Assembly (NCBI GenBank): GCA_020725645.1
Contig: DYEQ01000029.1
Location: 43,109-107,108, forward strand
DNA: 64,000 nt
Origin: Candidatus Fermentithermobacillaceae bacterium
GTDB taxonomy: Bacteria; Bacillota; Sulfobacillia; Fermentithermobacillales; DUSS01
Direction of reading: 5' to 3'
Made by a program: the position numbers and the translations under genes. The notes under the pieces are model-generated. The model searched no databases, had not been told where the DNA came from, and was given only the letters and a program-made list of their open reading frames with translations. Positions 1 to 22,306 of this stretch are shown one piece after another (within the stretch, counting starts at the first letter, position 1; the number at the start of each line of letters is the position of its first letter).

Positions 1-731
1 TGACGGCGGAACGAATGGGGAGGGACCTTGCCCTCGCTGGGATAACCGTCGTTTCGGGTCTTGCGAGAGGAGTTGATTCCCAAGCTCATCGCGGCGCCGT
101 CCGAGCTGGAGGCAGGACCGGGGCTGTGCTGGGTTCGGGTCTCGATGTGATTTATCCCCCGGAGGAGAGGAGGCTTTTCGAGGAAGTCCGGCAGTGTGGC
201 TGGGTCATCTCGGAATACCCCCCGGGGTCCCCGCCGCTTAAATGGCATTTTCTCGAACGTAACCGCCTCCTCAGCGGATTGTCCATAGGTGTGGTGGTGG
301 TCGAGGCGGGTCCCAGGTCCGGAGCTCTTTCCACCGTGGAGTACGCTATAGCTCAGGGGCGTCCCGTAATGGCGGTCCCCGGAAGCGTTACAAACCCGTC
401 GGCGGCAGGCACCAACAAGCTCCTGGCGGATGGTGCGGGACTGGTTACCTGCGCCAAGGATGTGCTATGCTTTCTCAGGCATGAGACTGAATACGTTCCC
501 GAGTTCAAAGAGAATCGGAACTCAGGCGTTTCGGTTACCTTGGAGGAAGGAGAGATCCTCAGAATCGTCGGGGACGACGTTCTTTCCCGCGATGAGATCC
601 TGAGGAAATCGCCGTTTCCCCCGGGAAAGTCGTGCGCCCTGATATCGGCGCTGGAAGTAAAAGGACTGCTCGAGCGGATGCCTGGCGGGCGACTTACCCG
701 TCGCCCAACGGCATCCTCCTTTGTGAGGTGA
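1..731 (+). CDS. dprA: DNA processing protein DprA (Smf), 5'-truncated by the window edge
   Basis: ORF 15..731 translation matches the DprA Rossmann core (GLARGVDSQAHRGA... VVVEAGPRSGALSTVEYAIAQGRPV). The frame is open to position 1. Confidence 0.85.
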   Translation, partial: TAERMGRDLALAGITVVSGLARGVDSQAHRGAVRAGGRTGAVLGSGLDVIYPPEERRLFEEVRQCGWVISEYPPGSPPLKWHFLERNRLLSGLSIGVVVVEAGPRSGALSTVEYAIAQGRPVMAVPGSVTNPSAAGTNKLLADGAGLVTCAKDVLCFLRHETEYVPEFKENRNSGVSVTLEEGEILRIVGDDVLSRDEILRKSPFPPGKSCALISALEVKGLLERMPGGRLTRRPTASSFVR

Positions 732-803
732 GACCCTACGGGCAAAGGAAAGCCACTGATAATCGTCGAGTCGCCGGCGAAGGCCAGGACGATCCAGAGG
801 TTC

Positions 804-2867
804 ATGAAGAGGAAGTATGACGTAGCTGCGTCCCTCGGGCACGTGCGGGATCTGCCCAAGAGCCAGATGGGCGTGGACGTTGACGACGGCTTTAAGCCAA
901 GGTACATCAACATAAGGGGTAAGGGCGAGGTAATCAAGAAACTCAGGGAGATGGCGAAGACCGCCCCCCAGGTGTACCTGGCCACCGACCCGGACCGGGA
1001 GGGCGAAGCTATTTCATGGCATCTATGTCATGTACTTGGACTCGATCCCTCCGAGGCGCGGCGGGTTACGTTCCACGAGATAACCGATGGGGCGGTGACC
1101 GAGGCTTTCAAGCACCCCCGGCCCATCGACCAGAACCTGGTCGACGCTCAGCAGGCCCGTAGAATCCTGGACAGGCTCGTGGGCTATAGTTTGAGCCCGC
1201 TTTTGTGGCACAAGGTGAAAAGAGGTCTGTCAGCGGGAAGGGTGCAGTCAGCTGCCCTACGCCTGATTTGCCAGAGGGAAAAGGAGATCGAGGAGTTTAA
1301 GCCAGAGGAATACTGGACTCTCGACGCAAAGCTCGAGTCCTCAGGCGAGGTATTTCTCGCCAGGTACCACGGAACCGGGGGCAAGAAAGTCGATCTTCGT
1401 TCACGTACGGATGTAGATGAGATCGTCGCCTCCTTGAAGAACGAACTCTTTGTCGTAAAATCAGTGGAACAGAAGGAAAAGCGAAGATACGCTCCGTTCC
1501 CCTTTACGACCTCCACTTTGCAGCAAGAAGCTTCAAGACACCTCGGTTTTTCGGTGAAACGAACCATGGCGGTAGCTCAAACCCTCTATGAAGGAGTCAA
1601 CCTGGGGAAGGAAGGTCCCCGGGGTCTCATAACGTACATGAGGACCGATTCGACGAGAGTGTCCCAGGCGTCTCAAGCACAGGCGAGAGCTCTTATCTCG
1701 GAGAAATTCGGCCGGGAATATATCGGGCCCGTGAGGCAAGCAAAAGAAGGTCCCGGGGTTCAAGGAGCTCACGAGGCCATAAGGCCCACAGACGTTTCGA
1801 GGACCCCTGAATCGTTAAAGCAATACCTCAGTCAGGACCAGTACAGATTGTACTCCCTCATATGGAAGCGGTTCGTGGCGAGCCAGATGGCGCCCGCTGT
1901 ATACGACACGATTTCGGCGGAGATCGAAGCGGGTAGGCATTTATTCAAGGCCGGAGGCCAGAGGCTCAAGTTCGACGGATTTACCAGGGTGTACACGGAA
2001 AGGAGCGATGATCCCGAAAAAGACACACCCCCGCTACCACCGCTTAAAGAAGGAGAAGTTCTGATCCTGCGGGATCTTTTGGCCGCCCAGCACTTTACCG
2101 AGCCTCCGTCCAGGTACACCGAAGCTTCTCTCGTGAAAGCGATGGAAGAGAGGGGAATAGGTCGTCCGTCGACATACGCCCCCACCATTTCAGTGCTTCT
2201 CGAGAGGGACTACGTTACAAAAGAAAAGAAAAAGCTCGTTCCGACCGAGCTGGGACGCGTGGTCGACAAGCTCCTGGTGGAGAACTTCCCTTCCGTCCTG
2301 GACCTGGATTTCACCAGGGAGATGGAGGAAAAACTCGACAAGATCGAGGCAGGCGAAGGACATTGGCAGGCGGTGGTAAGGGAATTCTGGGAGCCCTTTA
2401 AGGCCCTCGTGGATAAAGCTGAGGAGTCCTTAGGGCGTCAGGAGCTCCCGGCGGAACCGGCCGGGGTCAATTGCGAGGTTTGCGGAAAGCCCATGGTGAT
2501 AAGGACCGGAAGGTTCGGTAAATTCATAGCATGCTCCGGTTATCCTGAGTGTAAGAACACCAAACCTTTCCTGGACAAGATCGGGGTACCCTGTCCTAAA
2601 TGCGGTGGTGACTTGGTCCGTCGAAGGTCGAAAAAGGGCAGGGAGTTCTTCTCCTGCGTGAATTACCCCACTTGTGACTTTCTGAGCTGGTCCAGGCCGG
2701 TGGGGAGAAACTGTCCGGTTTGCGGTGAGCCCCTGGTGGAAGGGCCCGGCAATGCGGTTCGATGTTCCCGAAAGGGTTGCGATTACCGGGAAAAGGCTCT
2801 CGTGGGAAAATCTCTCTCGGCCCCGGAAACCCCGAAGGAAAATGCGGTAAATAGTCTAGAAAATTGA
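804..2867 (+). CDS. topA: DNA topoisomerase I with three C-terminal CxxC zinc ribbons
   Basis: TOPRIM and topo IA motifs (GHVRDLPKSQMGVD, DPDREGEAISWHL) and three C-terminal CxxC...CxxC ribbons. The conserved N-terminal KPLIIVESPAKARTIQRF is encoded in frame upstream of the first ATG (804), so the true start is probably near 738; see findings. Confidence 0.95.
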   Translation: MKRKYDVAASLGHVRDLPKSQMGVDVDDGFKPRYINIRGKGEVIKKLREMAKTAPQVYLATDPDREGEAISWHLCHVLGLDPSEARRVTFHEITDGAVTEAFKHPRPIDQNLVDAQQARRILDRLVGYSLSPLLWHKVKRGLSAGRVQSAALRLICQREKEIEEFKPEEYWTLDAKLESSGEVFLARYHGTGGKKVDLRSRTDVDEIVASLKNELFVVKSVEQKEKRRYAPFPFTTSTLQQEASRHLGFSVKRTMAVAQTLYEGVNLGKEGPRGLITYMRTDSTRVSQASQAQARALISEKFGREYIGPVRQAKEGPGVQGAHEAIRPTDVSRTPESLKQYLSQDQYRLYSLIWKRFVASQMAPAVYDTISAEIEAGRHLFKAGGQRLKFDGFTRVYTERSDDPEKDTPPLPPLKEGEVLILRDLLAAQHFTEPPSRYTEASLVKAMEERGIGRPSTYAPTISVLLERDYVTKEKKKLVPTELGRVVDKLLVENFPSVLDLDFTREMEEKLDKIEAGEGHWQAVVREFWEPFKALVDKAEESLGRQELPAEPAGVNCEVCGKPMVIRTGRFGKFIACSGYPECKNTKPFLDKIGVPCPKCGGDLVRRRSKKGREFFSCVNYPTCDFLSWSRPVGRNCPVCGEPLVEGPGNAVRCSRKGCDYREKALVGKSLSAPETPKENAVNSLEN

Positions 2868-7056: not shown

Positions 7057-7437
7057 GTGCAGTCCATTTCATCTTTGCTGGCAAAAGCTCTTGACGCGTC
7101 TTGGGCGAGGCACGAATTCCTCGCTTCGAATCTGGCCAACGCCGAGACCCCGGGTTTCAAGAGACAGGACTTGGATTTCCAATCCTACCTTAGATCCGCT
7201 CTGAGCCCGGGCGTTGTCGTCAGTACGACCCATCCGCGGCACATTTCCTCATCCGGACCCCGGCCGCTGTACGTCACGAGGGATTCCTCCAGCCTTACCC
7301 CGGATGGAAACAACGTCGACGTTGATAGAGAAATGGCCGAGGTATCCTCGAACGCGCTCTATTACACCGCCGTCCTGCGACAGCTCGGCGAACATATGAG
7401 CTTGCTGCGAAAAGCCATCACCGAAGGGAGGAGGTAA
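7057..7437 (+). CDS. flgB: Flagellar basal-body rod protein FlgB
   Basis: N-terminal SNLANAETPGFK rod motif; 126 aa. Confidence 0.9.
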   Translation: MQSISSLLAKALDASWARHEFLASNLANAETPGFKRQDLDFQSYLRSALSPGVVVSTTHPRHISSSGPRPLYVTRDSSSLTPDGNNVDVDREMAEVSSNALYYTAVLRQLGEHMSLLRKAITEGRR

Positions 7438-7439
7438 CC

Positions 7440-7895
7440 GTGAGGTTATTTTCAGCTATCGAAGCCAGCGCCTCCGGGCTGACGGCCCAGAGGCTACGCC
7501 TGGACCTTATTGCGTCCAACCTGGCTAACGCCGAAACGACGAGGACTCCCGAGGGGGGACCATACGTCCGCAAGGTAGCTATCGTCGCACCCAGGAACCC
7601 GAGGTACTCCTTTCGAGAACTCCTCGCCCTGAAGTGGGGCTCTCTTCCGGGGGACGGTTCTCCCGTAGGTGTTGAGGTGGTTTCAGTGGCGCGGGACCCG
7701 ACGCCGCCCCGAAGGGTGTACATGCCGGGTCATCCCGATGCCGACGACGATGGATACGTCACGTTTCCCAACGTGAACGTGGTTACGGAAATGGTCGATA
7801 TGATGGCAGCTACCAGGGCTTATGAAGCGAATGTGACGGCCATCGAAGCGGCCAAGGCGATGGCCACCCGGGCATTGGAAATGCTCAGAGTTTAA
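7440..7895 (+). CDS. flgC: Flagellar basal-body rod protein FlgC
   Basis: SNLANAETTRTPEGGPY and C-terminal rod motif; 151 aa. Confidence 0.9.
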   Translation: MRLFSAIEASASGLTAQRLRLDLIASNLANAETTRTPEGGPYVRKVAIVAPRNPRYSFRELLALKWGSLPGDGSPVGVEVVSVARDPTPPRRVYMPGHPDADDDGYVTFPNVNVVTEMVDMMAATRAYEANVTAIEAAKAMATRALEMLRV

Positions 7896-20312: not shown

Positions 20313-21051
20313 CTCAAAAGAAAATGAAAAGATGAAGCCTGCTGGCGAGTCCGGAATGGTCACGGAACCGGAGAGCGGCCCGAACGATACCGTCGTTGAG
20401 GAACTCAAAGAGCAGGCCGGGACGGTGGAGGAAAAGGAAGGCTCCGCGCTCCCAGGAAACCTCCCGGAGGCCTCCGGGGGCGGGCTGCCCCACAGAAAGG
20501 GCCTGGAGGGGGAAGCTGGTGATAGCGCGGCGCCAGCTTTCCGAGCGGCGGAAGAGGTTGCTGGGGGAGCGGCTGTCTCCGTTCTTGAACAGCTCAAGCT
20601 TTCTCCCTCGGAGCAAAAAGAGGCAGACATGCTGATATCCAGCCTGCTTTCGGGGAGAGATGATCCCAGAGACTCCGGCAAGACTTCCGGGACCAAAGCT
20701 GAGGAGGAATCCGCCGGTCCGGTGATTCGGCCCGCGGTATTTGAGGAGTTCACACCGGAGCCGGGAGCACAAGCTACCATCGGAGGGTTGGATCTTTTGA
20801 TGGATGTGCCTCTCTCGGTTACGGTGGAGCTCGGAAAAGCCCGGTGTTACGTCAGAGACATTCTGAACCTGACCGTTGGATCCGTCATCGAACTCGAGAA
20901 ACTCGCGGGCGACCCGGTGGACGTCCTGGTTAACGGAAAGCTCATCGCAAAGGGAGAGGTAGTTGTCCTCGACGAGAATTTCGGCGTGAGGATTCAAGAG
21001 ATAGTTTCTGGAACGGCAAAGCCCAAAAAGAGCGCGGCCGGTAACCGGTAA
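20290..21051 (+). CDS. fliY: Flagellar motor switch protein FliN/FliY
   Basis: 253 aa; acidic N-terminus and C-terminal SpoA domain ([71 protein letters not shown]). Confidence 0.85.
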
Positions 21052-21112
21052 GAAGCTCGATATTGGAGACGAGCTGAAAAAGGGGGGGACCCGCCGGAGA
21101 CGGCGGTTAAAG

Positions 21113-22306
21113 ATGAGCTCGTATTCTCTGACTTTGGAGCTTATTAAAATCGCGGTGTTTCTGGCGATTCTCTTTGCCGCAGCTTATCTGCTTCTGCGAC
21201 TATCGGGGCGCTCGAGACCCCGGAGGGGAGCCGGAAAGGAACTTACCATCCTGGAGACGCTCAGCCTGGGTGGACCGAGGTTTCTCTGCCTTGTCAAGTT
21301 CGGCCGAAGGCGCCTCTTGCTTGGGGTCACGGACCATTCTATCACCTGTTTATCCCGTTATCCGGATGAAACGGGCGGGCCGGACGAGAACTCCGTGGGA
21401 GATCGCGGTTCTGCCGGCCTGGATCAAGGGGCTTCCGCAGGCGGCTTGGAGGGAACGGGCGAGAGGGGTATTCCAGGGACGTCCTTTCTCGATACCCTCC
21501 GCAGGGAATTCGGATCCTCCTGGAGACGGCTCAGGCGAAAAGGACCCTTCTTCCTCGTTTTTGCGGCGATGTTCCTGGTGGCGGCTTTCCCCCGCTACGG
21601 CGCGTGCCAGCCTACCCCAACTGTTCCCCTTCCCATCCCCAACATTGACATAAGGATCGGGGGAGAAGGGGGGGACGGCGGGCTCCTCTCAGCTCTGGGT
21701 ATTCTCGCGGTTCTCACCGTGCTTTCCCTGGCGCCGGCTATCCTGATACTCACTACTTCGTTTACCAGGATAATCGTGGTGTTCTCTTTTCTCAGGGCGG
21801 GGCTCGGCACCCAGCAGACCCCGGCGAATCAGATACTCATCGGACTTGCCCTCCTCATGACCTTTCTGATCATGGCTCCCGTGTGGAATCAGGTGAACGC
21901 AGTGGCCGTTCAGCCTTACGTGCGGGGGGAGATCGCCGCGGCCGAAGCGTGGCAACGGGGCATAGTGCCCGTGCGGGATTTCATGTTGAGGCAGACGAGG
22001 CAGAAAGATCTCGCCCTGTTCCTGGACATGCAGGGGGGAAATCCCCCCGCCGGACCCGAGGACCTGTCCATATTCGTGGTGGCCCCCGCCTTTGTCATCT
22101 CCGAACTGAAAACCGCCTTCGAAATAGGGTTCATGCTGTTTTTGCCGTTCCTCGTAATAGACATGATAGTGGCGTCCACTCTGATGTCCATGGGAATGCT
22201 GATGCTTCCTCCGATTTTGATCTCACTGCCTTTCAAGATTCTTCTATTCGTGCTCGTTGATGGTTGGGGGCTTCTAGCTCAATCGCTCATGAAGAGCTTC
22301 AGATAG
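21113..22306 (+). CDS. fliP: Fused FliO-FliP flagellar export apparatus protein
   Basis: One 397-aa ORF. Residues 1-95 are FliO/FliZ-like (single transmembrane segment, LSLGGPRFLCLVKFGRRRLLLGVTDHSI). A Gly/Asp-rich linker follows, then a signal-peptide-like FFLVFAAMFLVAAF and a full FliP core (LTTSFTRIIVVFSFLRAGLGTQQTPANQILIGLALLMTFLIMAPV...). No in-frame stop separates the two parts. Confidence 0.8.
   Translation: MSSYSLTLELIKIAVFLAILFAAAYLLLRLSGRSRPRRGAGKELTILETLSLGGPRFLCLVKFGRRRLLLGVTDHSITCLSRYPDETGGPDENSVGDRGSAGLDQGASAGGLEGTGERGIPGTSFLDTLRREFGSSWRRLRRKGPFFLVFAAMFLVAAFPRYGACQPTPTVPLPIPNIDIRIGGEGGDGGLLSALGILAVLTVLSLAPAILILTTSFTRIIVVFSFLRAGLGTQQTPANQILIGLALLMTFLIMAPVWNQVNAVAVQPYVRGEIAAAEAWQRGIVPVRDFMLRQTRQKDLALFLDMQGGNPPAGPEDLSIFVVAPAFVISELKTAFEIGFMLFLPFLVIDMIVASTLMSMGMLMLPPILISLPFKILLFVLVDGWGLLAQSLMKSFR

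Follow-up and report, generated by a model that had tools for sequence, protein, structure and literature searches.

The closest described counterparts of the gene start analyzed in this work are the AUU start codons of infC, which encodes IF3, and of pcnB in Escherichia coli and its relatives, where initiation is inefficient and is discriminated against by IF3. ACG serves as a start codon in plant organelles, which edit it to AUG, as well as in viruses and mRNAs of eukaryotes (e.g., adeno-associated virus (AAV), paramyxovirus C'); it is absent from the seven start codons allowed by genetic-code table 11. Here, we analyzed a 64,000-nucleotide stretch of DNA from an uncultured Candidatus Fermentithermobacillaceae bacterium (GenBank assembly GCA_020725645.1, contig DYEQ01000029.1, positions 43,109 to 107,108 of the forward strand), hereafter the window, with regard to the start of its DNA topoisomerase I gene, topA. 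Comparison of sequences confirmed that topA of the window and of all its close relatives begins at a rare non-canonical codon, which has been inherited. This codon is probably a near-cognate one, and the foremost candidate is ACG at positions 738–740, a reading that we hold at about even confidence.

The topA gene resembles infC and pcnB in being a housekeeping gene with a conserved, putatively near-cognate start behind a Shine-Dalgarno (SD) sequence, a feature by which infC and pcnB restrict or adjust the amount of a dosage-sensitive protein. Three marks of such a start were found in topA, namely the lack of a canonical start codon, a near-cognate codon at SD distance and conservation across a synonymous divergence (dS) of up to 0.76. 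It differs from infC and pcnB in its candidate codon, ACG, which is mismatched at the second position, instead of AUU, in that there is no evidence for autoregulation of topA, and in its distribution, which is restricted to one genus-level clade, in contrast to the widespread AUU start of infC. With the organellar and eukaryotic ACG starts it shares the same triplet at the place where a start codon is needed; however, those depend on organellar C-to-U editing or on eukaryotic scanning, neither of which is known in bacteria. In the literature, we found neither a natural bacterial ACG start nor a report on topA start codons, and the ACG starts that were found came only from engineered bacterial reporters, plant organelles (edited) and eukaryotic or viral mRNAs. 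In E. coli reporters that combine the native initiator tRNA with a good SD sequence, ACG initiates with Met at ~0.1–1% of the AUG level (bioRxiv 10.1101/063800; PMC3643588). These constructs were engineered, whereas the ACG of topA would be the natural and conserved start of an essential gene.

A conserved N-terminus ahead of the first canonical codon

The topA open reading frame (ORF) has a length of ~2.1 kb, and its coding sequence as proposed here (738–2867, on the forward strand, as are all features described below) comprises 709 codons plus TGA. According to Pfam and PDB sequence matches, its product is a type IA DNA topoisomerase I with Toprim, Topoisom_bac and Zn-ribbon domains: Topoisom_bac (PF01131) was matched over profile positions 2–410 of 411 (E = 2e-133), the C-terminal Zn ribbons (PF01396) in two stretches, and the top match among PDB sequences was 6ozw, a DNA topoisomerase 1 (E = 5e-94). 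The preceding gene, dprA, ends at a TGA (729–731) that lies inside the topA SD sequence and in the topA frame. From this stop, the topA frame is open to its first canonical start codon, ATG at 804–806, and the 24 codons in between (732–803), which encode DPTGKGKPLIIVESPAKARTIQRF, include zero ATG, GTG or TTG. The near-cognate candidates in frame are ACG (738–740), CTG (756), ATA (759) and ATC (762). A GTG at 723–725 is also in frame but lies upstream of the TGA and, since it is followed by AGG TGA, it cannot serve topA. Codon reading bore out what the initial annotation had reported for this interval: the shared stop, the ATG, the heptamer GAGGTGA (725–731), the ACG, the CTG and the ATA are all located where it had placed them, and no ATG, GTG or TTG separates the stop from ATG 804. 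The peptide that it gave is correct for 22 of the 24 codons, listed from the Thr onwards, and leaves out the first two (D-P).

The same annotation had proposed that the conserved N-terminus of type IA topoisomerases lies upstream of ATG 804, and both the Toprim profile and an alignment with E. coli TopA agree with this. When the upstream codons were included, Toprim (PF01751) was matched over profile positions 2–96 of 96 with 78.8 bits, as against positions 23–96 only and 56.1 bits from Met804; the upstream stretch carries 21 profile positions (2–22) together with the catalytic Glu. It aligns residue by residue with the N-terminus of E. coli TopA, MGKALVIVESPAKAKTI, and the alignment to 1cy0 (an E. 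coli TopA fragment) places the equivalent of Glu9 of the Toprim domain at GAG 768–770, 12 codons 5' of the first ATG. In type IA topoisomerases, this residue is required for catalysis. Further, a canonical start codon precedes or coincides with the hhhVESP motif in each of the 79 other TopA loci that the matches listed for species representatives of GTDB provided, and the Met encoded at 804–806 (within RFMK) is conserved at that place in family members that start upstream.

A protein search returned a single cluster of close relatives (P0001, 9 members, at least 90% identity), the next matches being at ~65%. At the DNA level, ten close-relative loci (L081–L088, L092 and L093) were retrieved from at least seven independent samples. 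They come from Logan assemblies (SRR6186653, DRR066667, DRR066656, ERR14788554, SRR24392716, SRR24635346 and SRR29635773), from an ENA biogas-fermenter assembly (ERZ925058) and from the NCBI metagenome-assembled genomes (MAGs) GCA_012842495.1 and GCA_014896535.1. Together with the window, they fall into five lineages (window/L088; L081–L084/L092; L085; L086/L093; L087) that show 85–94% nucleotide identity and a dS of 0.20–0.76 across topA. The pattern GAGGTGA-N6-ACG-N15-CTGATAATC is shared by the window and all ten related loci, and the same pattern, written as GAGGTGA-N6-ACG-N15-CTGATAATCGTCGAG, holds for all five lineages. None of the ten loci has a canonical in-frame start before the equivalent of Met804, and there is no revertant to ATG among the known sequences of this ACG clade. 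A degenerate pattern for IIVESPAKARTIQRFMK gave 0 matches in the JGI metagenomes, and a scan of GTDB representatives yielded nothing closer than 63% identity among the matches listed.

Only three substitutions were observed among the lineages in 756–803, namely AAG>AAA, AGG>CGG (at the first codon position) and TTC>TTT, and all of them are synonymous in the topA frame; over the gene, the dN/dS among lineages is 0.07–0.14, in keeping with strong purifying selection. This pattern shows that the codons upstream of ATG 804 are under coding constraint and argues for their translation. The synonymous-only changes, the Toprim strand and Glu missing from Met804 onwards, and the internal position of this Met in relatives together imply a non-canonical start between 732 and ~764, and ATG 804 is an internal Met rather than the topA start.

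More distant members of the family (60–65% amino acid identity; Candidatus Fermentithermobacillaceae and allies) start at ATG (L001–L003, P0003–P0056) or GTG (L089–L091), 4–16 and mostly 7–8 codons before the Leu of LIIVESP, with N-termini such as MTAETSPLIIV, MAAETKRPLIIV, MKNQVKRPLIIV and V(M)AASKRPLIIV. ACG lies six codons before this Leu, at a distance comparable to that of the outgroup starts. These genes share with the ACG clade the order dprA-topA-xerC-hslV, an N-terminus of the form x(3-8)-[K/R]-P-LIIVESP and a start that follows the end of dprA by a few codons; they differ in their canonical codon, the ACG clade being one transition away from an ATG ancestor. Since distant relatives carry ATG or GTG at a comparable position, the state of the ACG clade is derived, and the comparison supports a descent from ATG by one transition that was fixed and kept through substantial divergence. 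The ATG-to-ACG substitution envisaged in the initial annotation is thereby supported as history.

In three more distant relatives (P0057, P0058 and P0063; 674 amino acids), gene callers also begin TopA at the same internal Met. At the DNA level, these genes have a GTG start, from which the full N-terminus V/M-A-[AV]-S-...-R-P-L-I-I-V is encoded (L089, 399–480; L090/L091, ~1420–1501). These proteins were considered as a second, independent non-canonical case and rejected because the GTG in the DNA reveals them as gene-caller truncations only; truncation at the internal Met is a recurrent annotation error for the topA family. Another TopA homologue, P0002 (ENA, 959 amino acids), carries ~270 C-terminal residues as a tandem duplicate (DEEKQSGNVMVKSID... 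twice), which is probably an assembly artefact. Within the window, the non-canonical start appears to be specific to topA: a search for relaxed start use found 10 other ORFs with a long gap before their first canonical start, and in none of them does a Pfam domain begin upstream of it.

The Shine-Dalgarno sequence and the candidate start codons

The SD sequence GAGGTGA (725–731) is complementary over 7 nucleotides to the Bacillus-type 16S 3' end GAUCACCUCCUUUCU, which was assumed for the computation of all SD energies and from which the host's rRNA may differ. It ends 6 nucleotides before ACG 738–740, the sole in-frame near-cognate codon within working distance of this conserved element. The SD:anti-SD free energy (dG) upstream of ACG ranges from -11.5 to -12.3 kcal/mol in every lineage; such a score is reached by 2.9% of window positions, and typical gene starts of the window score -9 to -17. 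The conservation leaves a footprint in which 7/7 SD positions and 3/3 ACG positions are invariant in the window and the ten related loci, while the intervening spacer (GACCCT, 732–737) is constant in length and variable at 4/6 positions. The codon before ACG reads P/P/L/H/S across the lineages, a variation like that of a non-coding spacer. Given that 47% of the 4-fold degenerate sites of topA are invariant, the chance that the 7 SD sites would all be invariant if neutral is ~0.005, and it is ~0.0005 for 10 neutral sites. As dprA ends 26 nucleotides earlier in three of the five lineages, the SD heptamer is intergenic there, so that dprA coding cannot explain its conservation.

Further support for a start upstream of LIIVESP comes from the Lys-Pro codons AAG CCA (750–755) directly before this motif. 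All listed canonically starting family members have [K/R/S/H]-P before LIIV, which is Lys/Arg-Pro in essentially all of them, and within the ACG clade these two codons show synonymous third-position changes only (AAG/AAA, CCA/CCC). Genuine non-canonical initiation, for which the initial annotation had named ACG, CTG or ATA, is supported by these data, and among these codons the evidence points to its first choice, ACG. We infer initiation at ACG and not at CTG, ATA or ATC, with Met as the probable N-terminal residue.

Several points weigh against ACG. In E. coli CAT reporters, it was the weakest near-cognate codon tested, with 48–78 units vs. 7314–7838 for AUG, or ~0.7–1% (PMC3643588). Its invariance is by itself weak (chance ~0.10), codons 2–6 after it vary near the neutral rate (6/15 nucleotides), and the 10 variable columns cannot tell the reading frame. 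A strongly conserved block of 48 nucleotides starts exactly at CTG 756 and would also fit a start there, and it was CTG that the NCBI pipeline chose; since ACG is outside table 11, however, this pipeline could not have chosen it. The probable thermophily of the organism should make a mismatched codon–anticodon pair still less stable.

The strongest competitor, which we regard as possible but less probable than ACG, is a start at CTG 756, or else at ATA 759 or ATC 762 (together 756–764). The product would then be a 703-amino-acid protein beginning MIIVESPAK, and the upstream ACG and SD sequence would be incidental or a standby site. CTG is the annotated start in two related MAGs that represent two lineages of the clade at the same locus: the NCBI proteins MBE3518708.1 and HHY35527.1 (P0121 and P0122; type I DNA topoisomerase, Candidatus Fermentithermobacillaceae bacterium) begin MIIVESP, with their coding sequences placed on CTG at L092:301 and L093:301. 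The onset of very low synonymous variation precisely at this codon favors it as well, and AAAGGA is located 6 nucleotides upstream of it in four of the five lineages. In addition, initiation in E. coli CAT reporters was ~4–19-fold stronger at CUG, AUA and AUC than at ACG; the three codons gave 327–906, 238–313 and 352–631 units, respectively, i.e., roughly 4–12% of AUG for CUG and 3–8% for AUA and AUC (PMC3643588). Similarly, a survey of all 64 codons assigned AUA, AUC, AUU and CUG to a group at 1–2% of AUG and ACG to the 0.1–1% group, the N-terminal residue being Met and, in part, Thr (bioRxiv 10.1101/063800).

However, the SD energies ahead of CTG, ATA and ATC (-4.4 to -6.6 kcal/mol) are at background, since a value of -6.6 or better is reached at 24% of positions. 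Nor is the AAGGA conserved: L085 has CAGAAGAAAG, having swapped AAAGGAAAG for AGAAGAAAG, and the weak SD sequence before CTG is gone in this lineage. CTG lies 18 nucleotides 3' of ACG and has no conserved SD sequence, the invariant GAGGTGA being 25 nucleotides away and hence too far; a start at CTG would leave unexplained why this heptamer is conserved in intergenic DNA. It would also drop the Lys-Pro that canonically starting family members retain, and CUG is rare among the start codons of bacteria, at 0.024% (PMC11497404). Two or more of ACG, CTG, ATA and ATC may also share in initiation.

If ACG is the start, the 30S subunit would dock on the invariant GAGGUGA (725–731) through ~7 base pairs with the 16S 3' end and thereby bring ACG, 6 nucleotides downstream, into the P site, where initiator fMet-tRNA (anticodon CAU) would pair with it despite the central mismatch. 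The 709-amino-acid protein would begin fMet-Gly-Lys-Gly-Lys-Pro-Leu-Ile-Ile-Val-Glu-Ser-Pro. Initiation at ACG would give the peptides (f)M-GKGKPLIIVESPAK, GKPLIIVESPAK or PLIIVESPAK, and initiation at CTG would give (f)M-IIVESPAK. As the window encodes no tRNA other than tRNA-Leu(CAG), it is uninformative on an unusual initiator tRNA.

The block of low synonymous variation extends from the Leu to the Phe codon (756–803). In the 6 sequences compared, 3/16 of its informative codons vary vs. 47% gene-wide (P ~0.018), which places it in the lowest ~2% of 16-codon windows. RNAalifold predicted an invariant stem within it (AUCGUC 762–767/GACGAU 789–794). Upstream, CATCCTC at 712–718, with an anti-SD-like CCUC motif, can pair with GAGGTG (725–730) of the SD sequence in all five lineages, with one-sided changes only; this predicted pairing may form an SD-sequestering hairpin. 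A known RNA element or a significant structure at the start was rejected on three grounds. There was no Rfam match at E<=1 in 400–1100, the fold around the start was no better than that of shuffled sequences (z-score +0.6), and the covariation term of RNAalifold was unfavorable (+0.84), with two-sided changes in only 2/43 pairs and stems that are otherwise invariant or changed on one side.

Recoding, an internal start and sequence error

All mechanisms besides initiation at ACG, CTG, ATA or ATC are improbable, even when taken together. Recoding is the first of them, and we consider it highly improbable. It could consist of a start at GTG 728–730 followed by a +1 shift (e.g., at AAA-G/A, 749–752), of read-through of the TGA to give a DprA-TopA fusion, or of C-to-U editing of ACG to AUG. 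The +1 shift might draw on the GTG at 728 with its open +2 frame, present in all lineages, and on AAA followed by G/A, which would let tRNA-Lys re-pair after a +1 slip; but the SD sequence overlaps this GTG, which has none at working distance, and the putative sites show no conserved stop, rare codon or stimulator, an SD-like AGG before the AAA being lost in L085. A programmed +1 frameshift of the prfB type was rejected owing to the overlap of GTG 728 with the SD sequence and to the lack of a conserved stop or motif, and GTG 728 followed by a +1 shift was also rejected on its substitution pattern, which does not favor that frame (3/10 variable columns at third positions). The GTG at 728–730 opens an ORF one frame off topA in every lineage (728–820), which spans 30 codons in the window and ends there at a stop that L081 does not share.

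As to a fusion, dprA and topA do lie in one frame in the window and in L087, but only there, since dprA stops 26 nucleotides earlier and in another frame in three of the five lineages; read-through of the dprA stop was rejected because neither the dprA frame nor the position of its stop is conserved. Editing has a precedent in the ACG starts of plant organelles that are converted to AUG, but no machinery that edits start codons from C to U is known to us in bacteria.

A start at ATG 804 is also highly improbable. It would produce an N-terminally truncated protein of 687 amino acids and turn the upstream stretch into a conserved 5' untranslated region, with LIIVESPAKARTIQR left outside the protein. 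ATG 804 is the sole canonical codon, it has AGAGG 3 nucleotides upstream (dG -7.5), and Prodigal-type gene callers chose it. Yet a spacing of 3 nucleotides between SD sequence and ATG is too short, and the product would lack Toprim profile positions 1–22 and the Glu9 equivalent although topA is under strong purifying selection; the synonymous nature of all substitutions in 756–803 and the conservation of this Met as an internal residue in relatives that start upstream also speak against it. Finally, a sequencing or assembly error that conceals a true ATG at 738–740, the other branch of the initial annotation, would require just one T>C change and would be in line with the ATG or GTG of more distant relatives, but its probability is negligible, as it is refuted by the same C, and the same ACG at the position equivalent to the ATG sought, in all ten other loci, which derive from independent samples and assemblers and span five lineages.

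Gene context and implications of the topA start

The 3' part of dprA occupies 15–731 according to the ORF list, its 5' end being cut by the start of the window, and was matched by Pfam DNA_processg_A (profile positions 68–211 of 212) and DprA_WH. The DprA C-terminus varies by lineage: in the window and in L087 it ends in ...RRPTASSFVR at the TGA within the topA SD sequence (window 690–731), and in L081, L082, L085 and L086 it ends in ...GGRLVRR, 26 nucleotides earlier and in another frame, after a 1-nucleotide indel (L081, 4895–4930). An internal promoter, which might be a source of leaderless mRNA, was looked for in 300–1000; no promoter-like site was present there, so that topA and dprA probably share a transcript. 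Ribosomes that end translation at a TGA inside the SD sequence, as in the window and L087, could reinitiate 6 nucleotides downstream.

Over positions 1–41331 of the window, the gene order is dprA-topA-xerC-hslV-hslU-codY, followed by flagellar genes (FlgD, FliO/FliP, FlhB), uppS, dxr and a PHP/Pol III alpha gene, a Bacillus-like synteny in a genome assigned by NCBI to Candidatus Fermentithermobacillaceae. One stop-to-stop ORF at 21005–22306 has Pfam matches to FliO (residues 61–127) and FliP (236–428), and represents either a FliO-FliP fusion or two genes that share a frame.

Through the CTG annotation at NCBI, the lack of a canonical topA start is already implicitly on record; its clade-wide conservation is not, and neither is the evidence pointing to ACG, a codon that table 11 does not permit. 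The case also exposes a problem of annotation, in that Prodigal-type callers cut TopA by 22 residues, with loss of the catalytic Glu, and NCBI picks CTG, and both calls have spread into protein databases for the ACG clade.

Start-codon choice sets protein dosage, and the dosage of topoisomerase I is critical for supercoiling balance. Inefficient initiation, at ~1% of AUG in E. coli reporters, would thus hold back the synthesis of topoisomerase I as a built-in throttle, for which the strong SD sequence partly compensates, and ACG may plausibly act in this manner. We infer that the low efficiency has been selected and not just tolerated. That ACG is the sole start of this essential gene throughout the clade and forms a selection-maintained throttle dependent on initiation fidelity (IF3 level, temperature) is a proposal that we make tentatively. 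If true, a natural and conserved bacterial ACG start would widen the start codons used by evolution beyond the seven of table 11, and would offer a natural second-position-mismatch start comparable to the AUU of infC, as well as a natural test of how a strong SD sequence compensates for a central codon–anticodon mismatch.

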